The position numbers were made by a program, and so were the translations under genes. Below, one piece after another: positions 2,276 to 60,318 of a DNA stretch of 64,000 nt; the stretch's first letter is position 1; each line of letters begins with the position of its first letter. The notes under the pieces were generated by a model. That model did not search any database. It was not told where the DNA came from and saw only the letters and a list, made by a program, of their open reading frames with translations. Origin of the DNA: Bacteroidia bacterium. Its GTDB lineage: Bacteria; Bacteroidota; Bacteroidia; NS11-12g; UBA955. The stretch covers positions 3,421-67,420 of the forward strand of contig JBIPNH010000002.1 of assembly GCA_044373665.1 (NCBI GenBank), in the 5' to 3' direction.

Positions 2276-4984
2276 TTATTTTTTAATGCCGTCAAGAATT
2301 GCTTTTTTCGCTTTTCTAGCTGCTTCTTGCTTTACTTTTTCAATTTCAGCTTTTGCTTTTTCTTCGGCTAATTGTTTTTCTTGTCGAATTTTTTCTTCTA
2401 ATTTTTGTTTTTCTAAATTAGCTCTATCAATAGCTTGTTGCTTTAGATTCATTAAAGAATCATTGACTCTTTGTTTTTGAATTTCGGCTCTTCTTTTAGC
2501 TTCATCTTCTATTGCTTTTTTACGTTGTTCGACCTCATCCTTAAGTTGAGATTTTACATCATCTACAAATTTCTTTTTGGTTTCTGCCAAACTGATTTTA
2601 AAAACTGGTTTAGCAAAGAAACCAGATATTAGTACATCAACATTGACAATATCACTCAATTCTAAATTCACGCCTTTGGAACGTGCTTGTGACGTTAGTG
2701 AGTTAAGTACAGTATTGGCTTCTCCAAAATCTTTTCTAGGAATGCTCAGTTTGGCAATGTATTGAATGCTTTGGTCTAAAGCTGAAAAACCACTTATCTT
2801 AGCATTTGCACCTGGCCATAATGCCATTTTTAAACTATCCAATAACACCTTACCATTGTCAATTTTCAATTTGAAATTGAGGTCTTTTAGACTTAAATTA
2901 TTTAATTTGGTAATTTTTAACTCACTTGCCAGTTGGTTTAAAAGTGGCATATTTTTTAAAGAAGCACCTGAAATACCCATTTGTAGTTCACCAGTTACGG
3001 TTGGGTAATTCACACTTAAGTCTTTATTGAAATTATTTTGTAGTTTGATTTGTGAATTAAAAAGACCCTGAGTGTATTGTGCAATTGGAGCTAATTTTTT
3101 GACAATATCAAAATATTGGTAGGTTTTAATTATGTCAAGTGAACTTACATTAAAGTTTATATTACTAAATGGAAACTGAGGTTGGTGTGAATCGTAAATG
3201 CCATTTAAGGTCATTGAACCACCCAATAATTGAACGGCTAATTGATTAAACATTAGTTGTTTTTCTTTGATTATCACATCTCCATTTAATTGGGTTAAAA
3301 TAAGGTTGTCATAAACCAGTTTATTGATTTGTGATTTTAGAGTAAAGTCTAAATTCCCTGGAACATCAAAAGCTTCTAACGATACAGTATCATTAACAGT
3401 TGGTTCTTTCACAACTTCATCATATGTTAGAAATTCGTTGGCATTAATGTAGTTGGATTGTAAGCTGAATTTACCGGTTAGTAATTCATCTTTTGTGAAA
3501 TATGAGAACAAATTATCCAAATAACCTACTACCGCAAAGTCGCTCATTCCAACCGTTCCATTCAAGTATTTAATGTCAACTTTTTGAGGAGAGAAACTCA
3601 TTAATGCTTCTAATTTAGTGCCTTGTTTCAGCATTTCGGGATCTTTGAATTGGAAATTTTGAGCCATTAAATTTCCGCTTGCTTTAAATTTATTGTAGTT
3701 TGAGTTTTCAATGTCTTTGGTATATCCGTCAAACTGTAAATCACTGGTAATTTTACCCGTTATCAATGTTGATTTGTCCAAAGGAATAAAATTCCTAAAC
3801 TCATCCAGTTTTAAAGCGCCTTTAACAAAACCTTTGATATATGGATTAGTTTCAAAATTTCTGGCAAATAATTGACCTTTAAAAGGTTCTCCTGCCATTA
3901 CCATATCAAATCTTTTAAGGTCAACAACTGTAGCATCTGAACCTCCTGTTGGGTTGTCGATATTTAAATTTACAAAGACATTGTTGAGTGATTTGGGTAA
4001 ATTAGGATATTTGAATTGGCCATTGTCAACATCTATTTTTAAACCAAAACCAGGCATTAGCTCATCAGTCATTTTGCCTTTAAAATAGCCACTTAAATCC
4101 AATTTTCCGGTGGCTTTTAAATCTTTGAAATTTGAGGAATAAACGCCAGGAATTAGAGACAGGAAGGTTTTAAAATCTGATTTTTTGGTATTAAAAACAA
4201 TATCAAAATCCATGTCATTTTCATTCATATCCACATAACCTTCACCTCCAATATTTAAATCATTAAGTAAAATATCATTGTCGGAAAACGTGAATTTCAT
4301 GTTTTTCATGTCCATGTTTAAATTGACTTTAATGGCAGATTTAATGTTGTATAAATAACTAACACCTCCATAATTCATGGTCAGTTTTTCGACTTCAGTA
4401 ATGGTTTCTAGTAAAAAATTATCTTTATTAAAATCGCCTTTTAATTCGTGGTTAAATTGATAAAGTGAAGTAGAAAAACCCAAAGATTCATCACTGTATT
4501 TTAGAGTACCATTTTCGATGCTTAGCTTTTTAAGTTTAATGTCAAACATTGAACTCGTATCACTCTCAGTGGAAGAAGTGTCTGGAATTGCAATATCCCA
4601 ATTGCTTTTCCCATTTTTAAGCACCAAAAGCTGAATAAAAGGTTTAGTAAGTGCTATTTTATTGATTTTTATACTCGAGCCTTTGAAAAAGGACATCAAG
4701 TCGAGTTGTGCATTTATTTTTGGAAGATATACCAAAGTATCACCCTTAAAAGAATCTTTTCCTACTATACTTATTCGTTCTAAAGTTAGGGATACATTTG
4801 GAAAGTTTTTGATTAAAGAGAGTCCAATGGCATTTTCATCAAAGTTAAACTCAGCATTTAATGATTTGTTGGCTTCTTTTTTTATGCCATCAATAATTTT
4901 ACCCTTAAATAAGAAAGGGATAGCAATTAAAGCAAACAGAATAACAATGAGAGTTATACCTGTAATTTTAAATATTTTTTTCAT
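2276..4984 (-). CDS. AsmA-family outer-membrane biogenesis protein
   Basis: 902 aa with a single N-terminal TM anchor (ITLIVILFALIAIPFLF), a long beta-rich periplasmic body and a Lys/Glu-rich coiled-coil tail. This is the AsmA-like architecture. Confidence 0.7.
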   Translation of the reverse strand: MKKIFKITGITLIVILFALIAIPFLFKGKIIDGIKKEANKSLNAEFNFDENAIGLSLIKNFPNVSLTLERISIVGKDSFKGDTLVYLPKINAQLDLMSFFKGSSIKINKIALTKPFIQLLVLKNGKSNWDIAIPDTSSTESDTSSMFDIKLKKLSIENGTLKYSDESLGFSTSLYQFNHELKGDFNKDNFLLETITEVEKLTMNYGGVSYLYNIKSAIKVNLNMDMKNMKFTFSDNDILLNDLNIGGEGYVDMNENDMDFDIVFNTKKSDFKTFLSLIPGVYSSNFKDLKATGKLDLSGYFKGKMTDELMPGFGLKIDVDNGQFKYPNLPKSLNNVFVNLNIDNPTGGSDATVVDLKRFDMVMAGEPFKGQLFARNFETNPYIKGFVKGALKLDEFRNFIPLDKSTLITGKITSDLQFDGYTKDIENSNYNKFKASGNLMAQNFQFKDPEMLKQGTKLEALMSFSPQKVDIKYLNGTVGMSDFAVVGYLDNLFSYFTKDELLTGKFSLQSNYINANEFLTYDEVVKEPTVNDTVSLEAFDVPGNLDFTLKSQINKLVYDNLILTQLNGDVIIKEKQLMFNQLAVQLLGGSMTLNGIYDSHQPQFPFSNINFNVSSLDIIKTYQYFDIVKKLAPIAQYTQGLFNSQIKLQNNFNKDLSVNYPTVTGELQMGISGASLKNMPLLNQLASELKITKLNNLSLKDLNFKLKIDNGKVLLDSLKMALWPGANAKISGFSALDQSIQYIAKLSIPRKDFGEANTVLNSLTSQARSKGVNLELSDIVNVDVLISGFFAKPVFKISLAETKKKFVDDVKSQLKDEVEQRKKAIEDEAKRRAEIQKQRVNDSLMNLKQQAIDRANLEKQKLEEKIRQEKQLAEEKAKAEIEKVKQEAARKAKKAILDGIKK

Positions 4985-55531: not shown

Positions 55532-58500
55532 ATGAAAGTCAGGGAACTTGTTGAGGCTTTCGGGCAACATGAACAAATTATTGAGTTTTTGGAACAACGC
55601 AAAAACAACGGGCTTTCTATTGCCAGTTTCGAAGGGTTGTCAGGGTCTTCATTAGCAGTTGTTCTTGCTTCTATTTTTCACCAAACTCAACAAAATATGC
55701 TTGTTTTGGTTCCCGAAACCGAAGAAGCTGAGTTTTTAAGAAGTGATTTAGAGCATTTAATTTCCGAAAATGATGTATTGCTTTTGCCCGATAGTTTTAA
55801 AAAGCCATTCGATTTTGAAGAGTTAAATACTGAACAAATTCAGCGCCGAACAGAAGTAATATCCAAATTGCAACATGCTTTACATCCCTATATTGTCGTT
55901 GCTACGCCTGAAAGTATTTCTGAAAAAGTAATCAGCACAGCACAACTTAAATCCAACTCGTTTGAAGTTAAGTTAGGCGACCTTTTGGACTTGGAATTTC
56001 TGTCAGATTTTTTGGATGAAAATGAGTTTGAAAGAGAAGATTTTGTTTGTGAGCCCGGACAATATGCCATTAGAGGTGGAATTGTAGATATTTATAGTTT
56101 TAGCAACGATTTGCCATACAGAATTGTATTAGATGGCGACCAAATTGAAAGCATCAGAACCTTTGATTTGGAAACACAATTGTCTATTTCCAATATTGCC
56201 TTTTTAACTATTGTTCCCAATATACAAAGTAGCAGTATAGCAGGTGAAAAAATATCTATTTTTAAGTATTTTACTGAAGAAACCATTTGTATACTCAAAC
56301 ACTTTGATGACCAATTCCAATACCTACAGAAACAATGGGAAACCTTATTGTCAGAAAAAATAAGACCCGAAAACTATCTCATTACGCCCAATGAAATAAA
56401 AGCCAATATTACGCAAATAAAAACCATTGTAGAAGTGGGTGCAATGCGGAGTTTTAAAACAAAAAAAGCTTTTAAATTTAACACCTCTCCGCAACCTTTA
56501 TTTCAAAAAAATATTGAAATGCTACTCACTCATTTACAAGGAAATGAGCTAAAAAATATAAAAAACCTAGTATTTAGTGAAACTGGCAAACAGATAGACC
56601 GTTTGCTAACCATTATCGAAGACCGCCAAAAACAAATCAATATTGTACCCATTTATCATGGTTTGGCCGAAGGGTTTTTGGAACAAGATTTAAAATTAGC
56701 GTGTTACACCGAACACCAATTGTTTGAACGTTACTACCGTTTTAAAACCCAAAAAAGAGGTTATTCCAAAAGCACGGCAATGACTCTAAAGGAACTTAGT
56801 GAGTTGCAAGTGGGAGATTATGTAACGCATATAGACCATGGGGTTGGTAAGTTTATGGGTTTGCAGAAAACTCAAATGAATGGGGTATTGCAAGAAGCTG
56901 TAAAAATATCATACCGTGATGGCGATTTGTTGTTTATTAATGTCAACTCGTTACACAAAATATCCAAATTTACAGGCAAAGATGGTACACAGCCAAGTTT
57001 GCATAAATTGGGAAGTGGGGTGTGGGAAAAGCAAAAAGCAAGTACCAAAAAGAAAGTTAAAGACATTGCGAGGGAATTAATTGCTTTGTATGCCAAAAGA
57101 CGGGCTCAACCAGGACATGCGTTTGCCCCCGACTCATACTTGCAAGTGGAATTAGAGGCCTCCTTTTTATACGAAGACACGCCCGACCAAGCTCGGGCAA
57201 CCGAAGAAATAAAGCGCGATATGGAAACCACTAAACCCATGGATAGATTGCTATGTGGTGATGTGGGTTTTGGAAAAACGGAAGTCGCCATTCGTGCGGC
57301 CTTTAAATCTGTAGCAGATAGCAAACAAGTGGCGGTATTGGTACCAACTACTATTTTGGCACATCAACACTACAGAACATTCAAAGAACGATTGAAAGGA
57401 TTGCCTGTCAATGTTGATTATATCAACCGATTTAAAACCGCAGGGGAACAAAAGAAAACCATACAAAAAGTAAAAGATGGTCAAGTTGATATTTTAATTG
57501 GAACCCACAGAATAGTGGGGAAAGATCTTAAATTTAAAGACTTGGGACTTTTGATAATAGACGAAGAACAGAAGTTTGGGGTTGGTGTTAAAGATAAATT
57601 AAAAGAAATAAGGGCTAATGTTGATACGCTAACCTTAACAGCGACTCCTATTCCAAGAACGCTTCATTTTTCATTGATGGGAGCCAGAGATTTATCGGTT
57701 ATCAATACGCCTCCACCCAACCGTTTTCCTATCAAAACAGAGTTACATACCTTTGACAAAGAACTGATTAGAAAAGCAATTAAATACGAAATTAGCAGGG
57801 GCGGTCAGGTTTATTTTGTTCACAACAGGGTTAAGGATATTTATGAATACCAGCACATGATAGAACAATTGGTGCCGGGTGTTCGGGTTGCTATTGCCCA
57901 TGGACAAATGGATGGTTCTGAGTTGGAAGATGTAATGCTCCGATTTATGGAAGGTGATGAGGATGTATTAATCGCCACCACAATCATTGAAGCCGGTTTG
58001 GATATTACCAACTGTAATACCATCATTATAAATCAAGCGCACATGTTTGGACTAAGCGACTTGCATCAAATGAGGGGTAGGGTAGGTAGAAGCAATAAAA
58101 AAGCATATTGTTATTTATTGTCACCGCCATTAAACACGCTTACCTCGGATGCTAAAAAACGTTTGAGTACTATCGAAGAATACAGTGATTTGGGAGGCGG
58201 TTTTCATGTGGCCATGCGCGACTTAGACATACGTGGAGCAGGTAATTTATTGGGTGGCGAACAAAGCGGCTTTATAAGTGACATTGGTTTTGATACTTAC
58301 CACAAAATATTAGATGAAGCCATTCGTGAATTAAAGCACGATGAGTTTAGCGATTTATTTAAAGATCAGATTGAAAGTATCAGCAGTAGGGACTGTCAGG
58401 TAGATACGGATTTTGACATGTTGATTCCCGATACCTACATTCGGAATATGGCAGAGAGATTGAGTTTGTACACCGAATTGAGTAAAATTGAAAATGAAGA

Positions 58501-58846
58501 GGCTCTTAATAAGTTCTCGGATATGTTGATTGACAGGTTTGGAAGATATCCTCAGGAAGTGGGCATACTATTGGCTTCTATTAGGGTAAAATGGATTGGA
58601 AAATCAATGGGATTTGAAAAGATTGTGTTAGAAAAGCAAAACATGAAAGTTTATTTTCCGGCAGATGAGAAAGCTGCTTTTTACGACAGCCCTGCGTTTT
58701 CTAAAATACTACAATACATAGCAACACAACCGAATAAATTTGAGATGAAACAAACAAGCAAAACCATTATTTTATGGGTTAAGTTTATCAAAAATATCCG
58801 CGAAGCGACTGAGTTTCTGGAGGAATTAAAGGGCTTGTATGTTTAG
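55532..58846 (+). CDS. mfd: Transcription-repair coupling factor
   Basis: 1104 aa with a UvrB-homology N-terminus and a CarD-like RNAP-interaction domain (VGDYVTHIDHGVGKF). The superfamily-2 helicase motifs are GDVGFGKTE, DEEQKFG and the TRG region. A C-terminal D7 domain is present. Confidence 0.95.
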   Translation: MKVRELVEAFGQHEQIIEFLEQRKNNGLSIASFEGLSGSSLAVVLASIFHQTQQNMLVLVPETEEAEFLRSDLEHLISENDVLLLPDSFKKPFDFEELNTEQIQRRTEVISKLQHALHPYIVVATPESISEKVISTAQLKSNSFEVKLGDLLDLEFLSDFLDENEFEREDFVCEPGQYAIRGGIVDIYSFSNDLPYRIVLDGDQIESIRTFDLETQLSISNIAFLTIVPNIQSSSIAGEKISIFKYFTEETICILKHFDDQFQYLQKQWETLLSEKIRPENYLITPNEIKANITQIKTIVEVGAMRSFKTKKAFKFNTSPQPLFQKNIEMLLTHLQGNELKNIKNLVFSETGKQIDRLLTIIEDRQKQINIVPIYHGLAEGFLEQDLKLACYTEHQLFERYYRFKTQKRGYSKSTAMTLKELSELQVGDYVTHIDHGVGKFMGLQKTQMNGVLQEAVKISYRDGDLLFINVNSLHKISKFTGKDGTQPSLHKLGSGVWEKQKASTKKKVKDIARELIALYAKRRAQPGHAFAPDSYLQVELEASFLYEDTPDQARATEEIKRDMETTKPMDRLLCGDVGFGKTEVAIRAAFKSVADSKQVAVLVPTTILAHQHYRTFKERLKGLPVNVDYINRFKTAGEQKKTIQKVKDGQVDILIGTHRIVGKDLKFKDLGLLIIDEEQKFGVGVKDKLKEIRANVDTLTLTATPIPRTLHFSLMGARDLSVINTPPPNRFPIKTELHTFDKELIRKAIKYEISRGGQVYFVHNRVKDIYEYQHMIEQLVPGVRVAIAHGQMDGSELEDVMLRFMEGDEDVLIATTIIEAGLDITNCNTIIINQAHMFGLSDLHQMRGRVGRSNKKAYCYLLSPPLNTLTSDAKKRLSTIEEYSDLGGGFHVAMRDLDIRGAGNLLGGEQSGFISDIGFDTYHKILDEAIRELKHDEFSDLFKDQIESISSRDCQVDTDFDMLIPDTYIRNMAERLSLYTELSKIENEEALNKFSDMLIDRFGRYPQEVGILLASIRVKWIGKSMGFEKIVLEKQNMKVYFPADEKAAFYDSPAFSKILQYIATQPNKFEMKQTSKTIILWVKFIKNIREATEFLEELKGLYV

Positions 58847-58892
58847 AGGATTGTATTTTTCTTTTTTTAAATAATGGCCAATAGGAATGGGT

Positions 58893-59042
58893 CCAAATTC
58901 AAAACCAGTACCCATGTAATTTCAAAGTTATATATCGTGTAATTTCAAAGTACATACCCGTGTAATTTCAAAGCGATGTATTGTGTAATTTCAAAGTGTA
59001 TACCCATGTAATTTCAAAGTTACATACAGTGTAATTTCAAAG
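58893..59042. repeat. Phased tandem array: six exact GTAATTTCAAAG cores at 23-bp period plus one degenerate leading copy
   Basis: Cores lie at 58916, 58939, 58962, 58985, 59008 and 59031, each preceded by T. The 11-nt linkers are semi-conserved (about TAYATACCCRT). A degenerate copy at 58893-58904 matches 8/12. Confidence 0.95.
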
Positions 59043-59128
59043 TTGATAATTGTAAGTATATGATAATCAAATTTATAAAACAAAAATATGGTTTTTTAAA
59101 ATAGCTTTCATTTTATATAATTTTACAG

Positions 59129-59136
59129 TAATTTTG
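59129..59136 (+). promoter_or_regulatory. -7 promoter box TAATTTTG upstream of AAA ATPase gene
   Basis: Perfect TAnnTTTG, 21 nt upstream of the ATG at 59158. Confidence 0.4.
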
Positions 59137-59157
59137 TAACCTGATAAGTTGATCATT

Positions 59158-60318
59158 ATGAGTGTAAATAGGGTTATAAAAAAAGAGATGCTAATCTATA
59201 AAAATAAGTATCCTATTTTAGCATTGACTGGACCAAGGCAATCTGGGAAAACCACTTTTTTGAAAAAAGAATTTTCCGATTATCAATATATCAATATGGA
59301 AAATCCAGATTTGAGGAATTATGCGGAAAGAGACCCTAATGCATTTTTGAAACAGTATGATAAGTTTGTTATTTTAGATGAAGTGCAACGTGTGCCTTTT
59401 TTGTTTTCGTATTTGCAAGCCAAGGTAGATGAGGATCAAATCATGGGTCAATATATTTTATCGGGTTCACAAAATTTTCAATTATTACAAAATATCACTC
59501 AGAGTTTAGCTGGTAGAGTGGCTATTTTTAAGTTATTCCCTTTTGATTTGGAAGAAATGAAGTCAGCTAATTTATTGTCAAATGATTACAGCGTAAATCT
59601 GCACAAGGGATTTTATCCAGCCATTTACGACAGAGATATTCCTTCAAAGGTTTTTTACTCTAATTATGTCCAAACGTATGTGGAAAGAGATTTGTCTGAG
59701 TTAATTAATATCAAAGACTTAAAACTGTTTAAAAACTTTATTGCTTTGTGTGCAGGTAGAGCAGGGCAATTGCTCAACTTAAATGCTTTGGCAAACGATT
59801 GTGGTATTTCTCAACCAACCGCAAAATCATGGTTATCGGTTTTAGAAAGTAGTTTTATTGTTTTTCAATTACAGCCTTATTTTGTTAATTTTAATAAACG
59901 GATTACCAAAACATCCAAATTGTATTTTTATGACACAGGGTTATTGAGTTTTTTGTTAAAAATTAAAGATGCTGAAAGTGTTAAAATCAGTCAACACAAA
60001 GGAGCATTATTCGAAAATTTTGTTGTATCGGAATATGTAAAACTCAATTACCACCAACATTTACTCCGTGATATTTGGTTTTGGAAAGATGCTGTCGGTC
60101 ATGAGGTAGATTTGATATGGCAGGATGATGAATTTTTGAACCTTGTTGAAATAAAAGCTTCAGAAACAATTATGAGCGATATGTTCAAAGGGTTTGAATA
60201 CTTTGAGAAATATGCAAAAAACTTAGTTAAATCAAAAACTTTAGTTCACACAGGACTTCAAAACCAAAAGCGAACTAATGGAGAGGTTCGCAGTTGGATA
60301 GATATTGCAAAAGATTAG
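59158..60318 (+). CDS. COG1373-type AAA+ ATPase (AAA_14 and DUF4143-like C-terminal domain)
   Basis: Walker A LTGPRQSGKTT and Walker B FVILDEVQ. The C-terminal part (KLYFYDTGL...EVDLIW...VEIK) fits the DUF4143 pattern. The ATG is at 59158 (the ORF is open from a TTG at 59149). Confidence 0.8.
   Translation: MSVNRVIKKEMLIYKNKYPILALTGPRQSGKTTFLKKEFSDYQYINMENPDLRNYAERDPNAFLKQYDKFVILDEVQRVPFLFSYLQAKVDEDQIMGQYILSGSQNFQLLQNITQSLAGRVAIFKLFPFDLEEMKSANLLSNDYSVNLHKGFYPAIYDRDIPSKVFYSNYVQTYVERDLSELINIKDLKLFKNFIALCAGRAGQLLNLNALANDCGISQPTAKSWLSVLESSFIVFQLQPYFVNFNKRITKTSKLYFYDTGLLSFLLKIKDAESVKISQHKGALFENFVVSEYVKLNYHQHLLRDIWFWKDAVGHEVDLIWQDDEFLNLVEIKASETIMSDMFKGFEYFEKYAKNLVKSKTLVHTGLQNQKRTNGEVRSWIDIAKD

Follow-up and report, generated by a model that had tools for sequence, protein, structure and literature searches.

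In the iteron plasmids P1 (incC/repA), F, pSC101 and R6K the iteron arrays overlap the rep promoter, and in BrxR/CapW-type regulators, as in toxin-antitoxin autorepression, a helix-turn-helix protein on its own promoter restrains a potentially harmful effector. We analysed a 64-kb stretch of Bacteroidia DNA (the window, here always the whole stretch) in which a phased repeat array precedes a gene of the AAA_14/DUF4143 family (COG1373, PDC-S01). These proteins are among the most abundant uncharacterised ATPase-nucleases in prokaryotes, and we know of no ligand, DNA specificity or regulation for them. One survey counted about 39,000 PDC-S01 systems, which ranked fourth among all defence candidates. 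DUF4143 has been classed as PD-(D/E)XK (PMC3424549), and the architecture of PDC-S01 is an ATPase plus PD-(D/E)XK (PMC12988326), the same as that of the protein encoded in the window. PDC-S01 is described as unvalidated, and the literature holds one negative heterologous test, in which a single representative, tested out of context in E. coli, gave no protection against T4, T5 or T7. The literature searched described no cis-element, DNA specificity or regulation of PDC-S01; queries with DUF4143, COG1373, AAA_14 and the core sequence turned up very little on the family and no account of the array.

The array, its flanks and the downstream protein

A Pfam search of the window placed the array between mfd (55532-58846) and an AAA_14 plus DUF4143 gene (59158-60318, positive strand), with mfd and methylmalonyl-CoA mutase as the domains recognised in the flanks. 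The array (58915-59042, positive strand) is composed of six head-to-tail 23-bp units, each with an invariant 13-nt core, TGTAATTTCAAAG, and a 10-nt variable linker. The six exact cores start at 58915, 58938, 58961, 58984, 59007 and 59030, at a spacing of exactly 23 bp; the original prediction had read them as 12-mers (GTAATTTCAAAG) repeated every 23 bp from 58916 onward, and both these positions and the linker sequences it quoted were correct. A separate repeat search recovered the same six copies, and TRF reported a period of 23 with 5.7 copies as well as a period of 46 with 2.9 copies and 84% match. The 46-bp super-period arises because alternate linkers resemble each other (6, 7 and 4 of 10 positions alike) more than adjacent ones do (3, 1, 1 and 2 of 10). 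Mean pairwise identity was 0.36 in the linkers versus 1.00 in the cores. No further exact copy of the 13-mer was found on either strand within the window, and near-matches with up to two mismatches numbered 9 elsewhere in the window, compared with 8.6 expected by chance.

A decayed unit 0 (TCCAAATTCAAAACCAGTACCCA, 58892-58914, positive strand) precedes the array. The decayed copy predicted at 58893 (CCAAATTCAAAA) does match the core at 8 of 12 positions, and this unit is also kept in the relatives with 96% identity, L024 and L152. A weaker copy had also been proposed after the last unit; there is a TGTAAG at 59051, but it lies 2 nt out of phase, which leaves this copy marginal. It opens an AT-rich spacer of 86 bp (59043-59128, positive strand) that separates the array from the putative promoter, a distance specific to the lineage of the window. 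The promoter candidate is TAATTTTG (59129-59136, positive strand), 21 nt before the ATG, which matches TAnnTTTG, the -7 promoter consensus of Bacteroides and Flavobacterium; its position and the flanking genes were as originally described. A scan of the window for sigma-70 promoters and terminators was uninformative (a sigma-70 model applied to a Bacteroidota genome), and the repeat search pointed to a possible 21-nt duplicate at 59040-59060 and 59146-59166. The TACA-N-TGTA inverted motifs seen at several linker/core junctions in the original prediction were not conserved across loci.

The gene encodes a 386-aa protein with predicted AAA+ ATPase, winged-helix and PD-(D/E)XK nuclease parts, as judged from Pfam, PADLOC, AF2 and Foldseek. 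Pfam matched AAA_14 and DUF4143 with E values of 1e-28 and 4e-45, and the PADLOC HMMs of candidate PDC-S01 matched with an E value of 5e-93. NCBIfam and PDB sequence searches with the ATPase returned nothing useful, and no further DUF4143 paralogue was found in the window. The AF2 model (pLDDT 90.4) presented a canonical winged helix, and Foldseek matched it with 2qen, STAND, RFC, RuvB, Orc1/Cdc6-DNA and Can2, including Orc1/Cdc6 bound to origin DNA (2qby_B, E 8e-5). The Walker A motif GPRQSGKTT (residues 25-33, 59230-59256, positive strand) was invariant at 9 of 9 residues in alignment A1 (18 orthologues) and at all residues except S29 and T32 in A2 (55 proteins, cross-phylum). The Walker A, Walker B and D..ExD..ExK motifs were conserved in both alignments; the residues of the PD-(D/E)XK motif, D311 ... 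E316-x-D318 ... E331-x-K333 (60088-60156, positive strand), were invariant or nearly so across phyla. The DNA-binding domain had been expected at the C-terminus, a placement that the model contradicts: the predicted winged helix-turn-helix is central (residues ~188-258, 59719-59931 on the positive strand, from AF2 secondary structure) and the C-terminus is the PD-(D/E)XK nuclease domain. The recognition helix of the model spans residues 219-231 (nt 59812-59850) and begins S-Q-P-T-A-K.

Arrays, genes and promoters across genomes

Co-occurrence of arrays with COG1373/DUF4143 genes, one of the checks proposed with the original prediction, was seen in both directions, from array to gene and from gene to array. 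The array-to-gene scan, which took one genome per species and two exact cores 9-13 nt apart, gave 62 loci, nearly all from Bacteroidota. At 40 of the 62 an orthologue (57-96% identity) starts 35-117 bp downstream on the same strand, five loci have a remnant of the orthologue and three stop at the contig end; at one of the 40, L039, the distance is 240 bp across an assembly gap. Public genomes contained 54 comparable Bacteroidota arrays, 45 of them directly upstream of an AAA_14/DUF4143 orthologue or remnant on the same strand, and the same arrangement was present in three cultured species. In the opposite direction we used an unbiased metagenome sample with 80 homologous loci, in which homologues with at least 70% identity had 23-bp arrays at 15 of 15 loci and those with 54-64% identity had 22-bp arrays at nearly all loci. 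Essentially all orthologues with at least 54% identity are preceded by such an array, which repeats every 22 or 23 bp and counts 2-16 units. At 44-49% identity the homologues, of which the named ones (Nitrospirota, Smithella and Brocadiaceae) belong to other phyla, retain between one and three TGTAAAT-type sites at their promoter, and a 41%-identity paralogue in L026 was found without an array. The array appears to be confined to one Bacteroidota orthologue group, and the repeat family was not found scattered at unrelated sites, the outcome that would have marked it as a generic element; the arrays sit at one gene family.

The family-wide weight matrix, rTGTAAtTTCAAArT, gave 446 matches in 55 kb of upstream sense strand versus 4 in 343 kb of control DNA. 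Inside the arrays, identity was 0.91 in the cores versus 0.57 in the linkers, which shows selection on the core and drift in the linkers. The linkers have 7-10 variable nt and are often identical or alternating within an array (L006, L007, L019 and L043). The number of units varies among close relatives, a comparison that had been proposed for strains: lineages whose proteins are 96% identical have 5, 6, 7 and at least 8 units. MAG assemblies break at the arrays. Each locus has a different genomic context, among housekeeping genes in chromosomes of 3-7 Mb, on contigs of up to 7.7 Mb. Family members are also found on plasmids, where the Emticicia copy has a single site only. A second locus in one MAG was seen only for L019/L032, which are probably one array split over two contigs, and for L026/L062. 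Judged from these comparisons, array and gene are inherited, moved and lost together.

The position of the array relative to the promoter is also regular. In 65 of 96 loci, TAnnTTTG follows the end of the last core after 6-9 bp (mode 7), with the cores always on the sense strand. Where orthologous loci have an exact TAnnTTTG (81 of them), this -7 box mostly stands 16-21 nt 5' of the ATG. The polarity of the array is fixed, and so is its position relative to the -7 box. Intrinsic terminators are located directly 5' of the array in several lineages. Neither the last unit nor the sequence just ahead of it contains a canonical -33 element; since the promoter has no recognisable -33 element, activation would fit the data as well as repression.

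In the alignments, the recognition helix changes in its first residues together with the core. Residue 219 is Q where core base 9 is C at 67 of 71 loci, H with G at 7 of 9 loci (from the outgroup and no fewer than two distinct Bacteroidota clades), S with T at 3 of 3 and I with A at 3 loci; these counts are confounded by phylogeny, since on the tree the residue changes about 9 times and the base about 12 times. Every member of a distant 'HN' clade carries H-N, and core base 9 varies there. Taken with co-occurrence and promoter position, this co-variation strongly supports two claims of the original prediction, namely that the array is a row of sites for a protein, their core constrained and the spacer free to drift, and that it is linked to the neighbouring COG1373/DUF4143 ATPase.

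Copies without the gene and readings of the array

Nine orphan arrays have intact cores with the gene absent (e.g., L005, L011 and L025), and two 21-bp satellites, L034 and L043, share the 12-mer without the ATPase. In addition, exact arrays of two or three units, phased at 23 bp and showing the same variants of the core, were found in non-coding regions of at least four uncultivated phage lineages, all without a DUF4143 gene. They came from a degenerate viral scan whose 120 mostly chance rows were filtered afterwards with the weight matrix. Phage replication genes were confirmed with PHROGs on L153 and L156, and for two of the lineages the nearest GenBank phages are of the Flavobacterium Muminvirus type. 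A cultured Muminvirus genome had no equivalent non-coding region, the cultured-phage collection contained no such array, and BLAST of the phage units against cultured phages gave chance matches only. On the opposite strand, some of the phage units can be read as -7 boxes. The host arrays were also considered as minus-strand promoters with CAAAnnTA (TAnnTTTG reversed and complemented) as the box, which was rejected because only about one quarter of the units fit and the clades do not share the feature; it may apply to some of the phage copies. Given the orphan arrays and the arrays of phages without the gene, a factor acting in trans, or another factor altogether, may read some of these sites.

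We consider it probable (about 0.6) that the array is a multiplied, iteron-like operator, bound head-to-tail by the product of the adjacent gene and probably autoregulatory. The reader of the array is most likely the DNA-binding domain of the downstream protein itself, and we propose the six 23-bp units as candidate binding sites for its winged helix. The core rTGTAAtTTCAAArT would be the site contacted by this winged helix, with sites about two helical turns apart, and protomers on neighbouring units would touch one another through their AAA+ domains. The resulting nucleoprotein complex would adjoin or overlap the promoter and set the expression of the gene; as to the sign, autorepression of a potentially toxic nuclease is favoured. 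Physical binding, oligomerisation on the array and the sign of regulation are what we infer from the sequence comparisons. The 86-bp gap in the lineage of the window fits poorly with simple promoter occlusion; this suggests that the array there acts at a distance, or that its main role is loading or nucleation rather than that of a simple operator.

The copies in phages suggest another use of the same sites, in which the array is a signature in phage DNA recognised by the ATPase-nuclease, either as target or as phage-borne decoy, and the chromosomal copy serves as self reference or as a platform for titration. Defence would then be triggered when copies arriving with a phage pull the protein away from its own promoter or make it nucleate on the phage DNA. 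The exact arrays in at least four phage lineages without the gene speak for this, as do the match with PDC-S01 with its nuclease motif intact, the frequent loss of the gene, which is dispensable, and the array of the window's lineage, uncoupled from the promoter with its cores still perfect. Nevertheless, one PDC-S01 representative gave no protection in E. coli (out of context, as mentioned), the phage arrays may be host DNA that the phages have picked up, or promoters for genes of their own, none occurs in the cultured-phage collection, and self-protection would be needed if a nuclease had its recognition site in the chromosome that encodes it; we regard this use as rather unlikely. In its fullest form, to which we give an equally modest chance, the array would be a DNA 'password' between host and phage: the ATPase-nuclease would be a sequence-specific sensor and effector at once, repressed and inactive on its own upstream array, until phage units titrate it and derepress the gene, or until they cause it to assemble on the phage DNA into an active filament with ATP-dependent nuclease activity. 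The copies in phages might instead be decoys by which it is disarmed. It is less probable, and in our opinion unlikely, that a different host factor such as a global regulator or a nucleoid protein binds the array, or that DNA curvature acts as an upstream promoter element, the ATPase being merely regulated. The AT-rich cores place AnTn tracts at intervals of about two helical turns, orphan and phage arrays occur without the gene, and the lack of a -33 element is frequent in activator-dependent promoters. Yet the motif travels with the gene across phyla that differ in promoter type and genomic context, it is not enriched elsewhere in the window, paired cores almost never occur away from the gene, the conserved G and C positions are not required by curvature alone, and it is the gene's own recognition helix that co-varies with the core.

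The remaining explanations fare worse. A structured non-coding RNA, as the original prediction had considered, or a miniature guide array with the linkers as spacers, is very improbable. Conserved repeats alternating with variable linkers next to a nuclease gene are superficially similar to repeat-spacer arrays, but the linkers are only 7-10 nt long, often identical or alternating within an array, and follow a shared pattern. The array lies upstream of the -7 box and, in several lineages, directly downstream of a terminator; direct repeats form no conserved helices, and folding was no better than that of shuffled sequence on the two strands (z-scores -1.37 and +1.25). Rfam at a permissive threshold gave chance matches only, to eukaryotic or unrelated families (E 4.8-9.8), far below gathering scores. 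A replication or partition site, another of the roles first suggested, has an even slimmer chance. As an iteron-type origin, copy-control or partition site of an integrated or former plasmid, the array would have the appropriate tandem direct repeats of 21-23 bp with a conserved core, within the 17-23 bp of iterons, and the gene downstream encodes an AAA+ winged-helix protein with Orc1/Cdc6-like fold matches; an 86-bp AT-rich stretch follows the array in the window, and family members occur on plasmids. Against this, the loci are mostly chromosomal (3-7 Mb), in different contexts with housekeeping neighbours, and the window and the other loci inspected had no adjacent Rep, Par or mobilisation genes; in the gene next to the array of the window, Pfam recognised only AAA_14 plus DUF4143. 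The GC-skew profile had no switch and no sign of an origin, the array abuts the promoter at most loci with no AT-rich unwinding region between, the Emticicia plasmid copy is a single site, and the protein, with its nuclease domain, belongs to neither the Rep_3 nor the RepA type. Least probable of all is that the array has no specific function and is a tandem repeat of the REP, MITE or satellite kind, neutral or selfish. Copy number does differ between close relatives, assemblies break at the arrays and the two 21-bp satellites have no ATPase, but the arrays are conserved across orders, with constant orientation and position relative to one gene family and with strongly constrained cores next to free linkers. 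A dispersed REP- or MITE-like repeat is not supported: there is no other copy in the 64 kb of the window and a second locus in two MAGs only.

Comparison with known systems

For the AAA_14/DUF4143 family, the array gives a concrete candidate recognition sequence (TGTAAWTTCAAAR) together with a predicted specificity-determining residue, 219, paired with core base 9 (Q/C, H/G, S/T). The native regulatory region is likely to be omitted in heterologous tests, or may not function in E. coli, and could bear on the inactivity of the one PDC-S01 representative tested. The copies in phage genomes suggest a direct link between host and phage; if the 'password' reading were true, the fourth most common candidate defence family would gain its first recognition code and its first trigger.

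CRISPR arrays share with these loci the regular alternation of conserved and variable sequence beside a nuclease gene. They differ in period (at least 50 bp, versus 22-23 bp here), and in our loci the core is 13-14 nt, the linkers of 7-10 nt are often duplicated rather than unique, the flanks contain no cas domains and the array is outside the transcription unit. The original prediction had excluded CRISPR on the short period, and the short cores and linkers, the repeated linkers and the flanks free of cas domains agree with it. BrxR/CapW-type regulators and toxin-antitoxin autorepressors act at one or two palindromes, whereas the putative operator described here is a head-to-tail array of up to 16 units, and its helix-turn-helix is part of the effector itself.

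The row of protomers proposed on the array resembles Orc1/Cdc6, DnaA and plasmid Rep proteins on their repeated boxes. With the archaeal Orc1/Cdc6 (2qby) the downstream protein shares an AAA+ module followed by a winged helix, and both have repeated asymmetric boxes beside their own gene. This likeness is at the level of fold, with 13% sequence identity; the origin recognition boxes are inverted around an unwinding element, whereas all our units are direct and abut the promoter, and the window protein has an extra nuclease domain. The likeness with the iteron plasmids extends further: tandem direct repeats of about 19-23 bp, a conserved core with a variable spacer, copy number that differs between relatives, and repeats located just before or across the promoter of the gene whose winged-helix product binds them (here predicted), with autoregulation as the consequence. 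In our case there is no indication of an origin function, no DnaA box or unwinding element came to light in the analyses described, most loci stand alone on a chromosome, and in place of a Rep_3 or RepA initiator there is an AAA+ ATPase with a fused PD-(D/E)XK nuclease. These loci would represent an iteron-like architecture outside plasmid replication, built on an AAA+ winged-helix protein that resembles replication initiators.

The repeat array in the window

Sequence reading and a repeat search located six copies of TGTAATTTCAAAG starting at 58915, 58938, 58961, 58984, 59007 and 59030, with an exact spacing of 23 bp and a decayed unit (core match 8/12) preceding them at 58893. This confirmed the copy number, spacing and decayed 5′ unit of the original prediction, but the weaker copy that it placed after the last unit proved a marginal remnant only. 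Tandem repeat finding reported a period of 23 with 5.7 copies and a period of 46 with 2.9 copies (84% match). The array is flanked upstream by mfd (55532-58846) and downstream by a gene with Pfam domains AAA_14 and DUF4143 (59158-60318; the ATPase gene), beyond which lies a convergent methylmalonyl-CoA mutase gene. It is non-coding, as had been proposed, because each unit contains TAA and the 23-bp period is not divisible by three. No further exact copy of the 13-mer was found elsewhere in the 64-kb window, where near-matches numbered 9 versus 8.6 expected by chance.

The window cores were 100% identical and the 10-nt linkers had a mean pairwise identity of 36%; zero changes in 78 core positions, beside such heavily diverged linkers, argue against neutral decay of a tandem duplication. 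Alternate linkers were more alike than adjacent ones (xACATACCCrT vs TTAyATAyxG), giving a super-period of 46 bp, and the same two-unit alternation was present in three other loci (L006, L152 and L039). It may reflect growth via duplication of double units, or pairwise binding.

Linkage between arrays and ATPase genes

One genome per bacterial and archaeal species was scanned for two exact 12-mer cores with 9-13 nt between them. The 62 loci obtained were almost all from Bacteroidota (Flavobacteriales, Pedobacter, Dyadobacter, Chitinophagaceae, Paludibacter, Draconibacterium, Saprospiraceae and others), and their arrays had 2-20 units with periods of 21, 22 or 23 bp. At 40/62 loci an orthologue of the window ATPase (57-96% identity) was located on the same strand, 35-117 bp downstream of the array; in L039, counted among the 40, the gene is 240 bp downstream and the array is interrupted by an assembly gap. 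Five loci showed a recognisable remnant of the gene beside the array, three had a contig end at the array, nine were orphan arrays in Bacteroidota, and three were unrelated sequence (an archaeal 11-bp repeat and a coding repeat in a Bdellovibrionales MAG). The remaining two, L043 (434-844, 20 units) and L034 (4440-4576, about 8 units), were 21-bp satellites sharing the 12-mer; their flanking bases differ (aGTAATTTCAAAGc or a), their 9-nt linkers are near-identical, and neither has an ATPase gene nearby. Scattering of the repeat family over unrelated sites, the refuting condition set for the original prediction, was looked for in this species-wide scan and was not seen.

The ATPase gene behaves as an accessory gene. 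Its context differs between genera, truncated remnants are frequent, and its presence varies within Pedobacter miscanthi (L005 vs L057): strain RS10 carries an array with intact cores but no gene, and strain DE_0302 has the gene. Two Draconibacterium MAGs likewise presented intact-core arrays without the gene, between DUF58-like and ComM-like genes, and at other gene-less loci the array was followed by short ATPase remnants only; in L062 a VapC-like toxin-antitoxin pair took the place of the gene. Arrays or remnants without an intact gene were recorded in L005, L011, L025, L021, L016, L017, L028, L037 and L062. Such gene-less arrays and remnants indicate frequent gene loss, with the array outliving the gene for a time. 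Contigs started or ended inside arrays in L007 (start), L019 and L032 (two contig ends of one MAG), L031 and L044, suggesting that long arrays break short-read assemblies and that true copy numbers may exceed those observed. Family members shared 70-80% identity among Nitrospirota, Brocadiaceae, Smithella and Pseudomonadota, and were carried on plasmids of Emticicia, Runella, Allochromatium and Wolbachia. On the Emticicia oligotrophica plasmid pEMTOL02 (L157) the gene (3001-4167, 53% identity) lies within an arabinose-utilisation operon, with a single TGTAATTTTGAA site within the 58-nt upstream gap; on the Wolbachia plasmid pWALBA2 (L158) it adjoins Rpn-family transposase genes and a RelE/ParE toxin gene.

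The linkage was also found from gene to array. In an unbiased metagenome sample of 80 loci encoding ATPase homologues, binned by identity to the window protein, a 23-bp array was present at 15/15 loci with at least 70% identity, and a 22-bp array at nearly all loci with 54-64% identity; in the latter the core 5′ half rTGTAAWTT was retained and the 3′ half varied by clade (TTGAAAR, TTTAAAR, TCAGAAA, TTCATCAA and others). No arrays were found in the 44-49% bin, mostly higher-GC contigs with Nitrospirota, Smithella, Brocadiaceae and similar as named clade members, which had one to three TGTAAAT-type sites, often palindromic around a TTGACA -35 box (e.g., CACAATTTGTAAATTCAATTGACAAATTGTG). Single, partly palindromic sites at this box were located in L146 (2440-2480), L147 (2450-2480), L149 (2425-2450) and L143 (about 297-330), at 44-46% identity; the three non-Bacteroidota single-site loci fetched were all inside polysaccharide-biosynthesis gene clusters. 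A 41%-identity paralogue in L026 had no array. Flavobacterium nackdongense, Polaribacter gangjinensis and F. soli, cultured species missed by the exact-core scan, each had 3-4 units with slightly altered cores (GTATTTTCAAAR, GCAATTTCAAAG) in a different genomic context. A weight matrix of the unit (consensus rTGTAAtTTCAAArT; 1.1-1.9 bits at most positions, 0.8 at R and 0.3-0.6 in the flanks) matched 446 times on the sense strand upstream of the gene at 121 loci (55 kb), versus 4 times in a 343-kb control set comprising both strands of the genes and the upstream antisense strand. Between units of one array the 14-nt core was 91% identical and the linker 57%.

At the 96 loci with two or more units (2-16, mode 3-4), the last core ended 6-9 bp (mode 7) before TAnnTTTG in 65, and 28-30 bp before it in 12 others, a distance corresponding to one extra decayed unit. 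The box matches the Bacteroidota -7 consensus of Bacteroides and Flavobacterium promoters, and the ATG follows it at 16-21 nt. Several lineages have a strong terminator hairpin with a T-run directly before the first unit; with the terminator of the upstream gene on one side and the gene's own promoter on the other, the array falls outside either transcript.

The window lineage is atypical in this array-promoter geometry. The window shares an AT-rich spacer between array and promoter with three loci at 96% protein identity (L024, L039 and L152) and with L066 (80%). The window spacer measures 86 bp, and the promoter box reads TAATTTTG there but TACTTTTG in L024 and L039. A 21-nt direct repeat of 81% identity, at 59040-59060 (AAGTTGATAATTGTAAGTATA, just past the last unit) and 59146-59166 (AAGTTGATCATTATGAGTGTA, spanning the ATG), may have been left by the rearrangement that introduced the spacer. 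L152 is syntenic with the window (mfd, ATPase, mutase). Two independent metagenome assemblies (L150 and L151) had an intergenic region identical to that of the window, indicating that the array does not vary within the strain. Among the relatives at 96% identity, unit numbers were 5, 7 and at least 8, linkers differed and cores were conserved, which points to rapid turnover of copy number and linkers between close species; the cores are retained even here, where the array no longer touches the promoter.

The ATPase-nuclease and its recognition helix

On HMM evidence the window protein is a member of PDC-S01, a candidate single-gene defence system (PADLOC, E 5e-93); NCBIfam and PDB sequence searches with it returned nothing. 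PDC-S01 is described as unvalidated and as ranking fourth in frequency among prokaryotic defence candidates (PMC12988326); a representative tested in E. coli did not protect against T4, T5 or T7 (bioRxiv 10.1101/2024.09.26.614923). PMC3424549 lists DUF4143 among the PD-(D/E)XK families. Alignments across phyla showed the Walker A (GPRQSGKTT), Walker B (D74-E75), helix-turn-helix (CGISQPTAKSWLSVLE) and nuclease (D311 ... E316-x-D318 ... E331-x-K333) motifs to be invariant or nearly so. A confident AlphaFold2 model (pLDDT 90.4, pTM 0.89, 55-sequence alignment) predicted an AAA+ domain followed by a winged helix made up of three helices (188-200, 208-215 and 219-231) and a beta wing, and an alpha/beta nuclease domain. 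Foldseek against the PDB matched it to the Pyrococcus Walker-type ATPase 2qen, STAND proteins (Apaf-1, Avs), RFC, RuvB and Orc1/Cdc6 bound to origin DNA (2qby), and its C-terminal part to the Can2/Cdn1 nucleases.

The start of the recognition helix, residues 218-223 (S-Q-P-T-A-K in the window), changes together with the core 3′ half. Q-P at residues 219-220 typically accompanied TTCAAA; H-T, H-S or H-N accompanied TTGAAA in 7/9 loci (exceptions L103 and L110), S-P (with V at 222) TTTAAA, and I-P TCAGAAA. Residue 219 and core base 9 paired as Q/C in 67/71 loci, H/G in 7/9, S/T in 3/3 and I/A in 3, a co-variation confounded by shared ancestry. In a neighbour-joining tree, Q/C clades separated the two Bacteroidota clades with H/G from each other and from the outgroup, which also had H/G; in a distant clade whose members are all H-N, base 9 was not fixed. 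Helix-turn-helix proteins usually contact bases at these positions, and we infer from the sequences that the window ATPase itself probably reads the array.

A candidate operator array, its rivals and related systems

Given linkage from array to gene and from gene to array, the fixed array-promoter geometry, a core under selection and its co-variation with the recognition helix, we interpret the array, with a probability of about 0.6, as an iteron-like autoregulatory operator attached to the ATPase-nuclease: a multiplied operator of head-to-tail sites to which the winged helix of the downstream protein would bind. With a unit spacing of about two helical turns, bound protomers would lie roughly on one face of the DNA with their AAA+ domains able to touch, and might oligomerise along the array through these contacts. 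In most lineages the complex would cover about -21 to -32 and further upstream of the gene's own promoter and so set expression of the gene. We favour autorepression of a potentially toxic nuclease; activation would also be compatible, because no recognisable -33 element was found in the ATPase promoter. In the window lineage the 86-bp spacer suggests that the array would act at a distance, or would serve mainly as a platform for loading or nucleation.

The original proposal of a protein-binding array tied to the ATPase is upheld by the two-way co-occurrence, geometry and co-variation, but the replicon and RNA alternatives offered with it are not. A plasmid-type origin or partition site is not supported: the loci have no Rep or Par genes and are mostly chromosomal, and no GC-skew switch was seen. 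A role as a structured RNA or guide array is not supported either, since the array is outside the transcript, the linkers are short and duplicated, folding of either strand was no better than shuffled (z = -1.37, +1.25) and an Rfam search gave no meaningful match. Position, polarity and core constraint rule out a neutral satellite. Another host factor, or DNA curvature, is a further alternative; against this, motif and gene co-transfer across phyla and the recognition helix co-varies with the core.

A credible rival is that the motif is a phage signature or decoy, for phages, unexpectedly, carry it too. Exact 23-bp-phased arrays of 2-3 units with the same core variants (GTAATTTCAAAG, GTAAATTCAAAA or GTATTTTCAAAG) were found in non-coding DNA of uncultivated phages, in at least four lineages without a DUF4143 gene: L153-L156 (6123-6157 in L153-L155 and 1947-1981 in L156, all on the minus strand); L176 (about 1302), L212 and L257; L183 (about 189); and L192 (about 5024). 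The nearest GenBank phages for L153 and L212, the two lineages compared, were Flavobacterium Muminvirus-type. In L153 and L156 the array is in the replication module, beside exonuclease, primase and HNH genes; the L212 array directly adjoins the start codon of a gene read leftward. The phage arrays may be targets or decoys, may derive from captured host DNA or may act as phage promoters.

No published account of an array, DNA specificity or regulation for the PDC-S01 family was found in the searchable literature. Under the operator interpretation, this very abundant, uncharacterised family would gain a sequence that it recognises, a candidate residue for its specificity and a possible connection with phages. 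The closest functional analogue is the iteron array overlapping the rep promoter (P1 incC/repA), although the array loci have neither the Rep initiator nor the origin context of an iteron replicon. Archaeal Orc1/Cdc6, with origin recognition boxes beside its own gene, is also close to the combination of array and ATPase. With both systems the likeness is one of mode of working, not of family membership.
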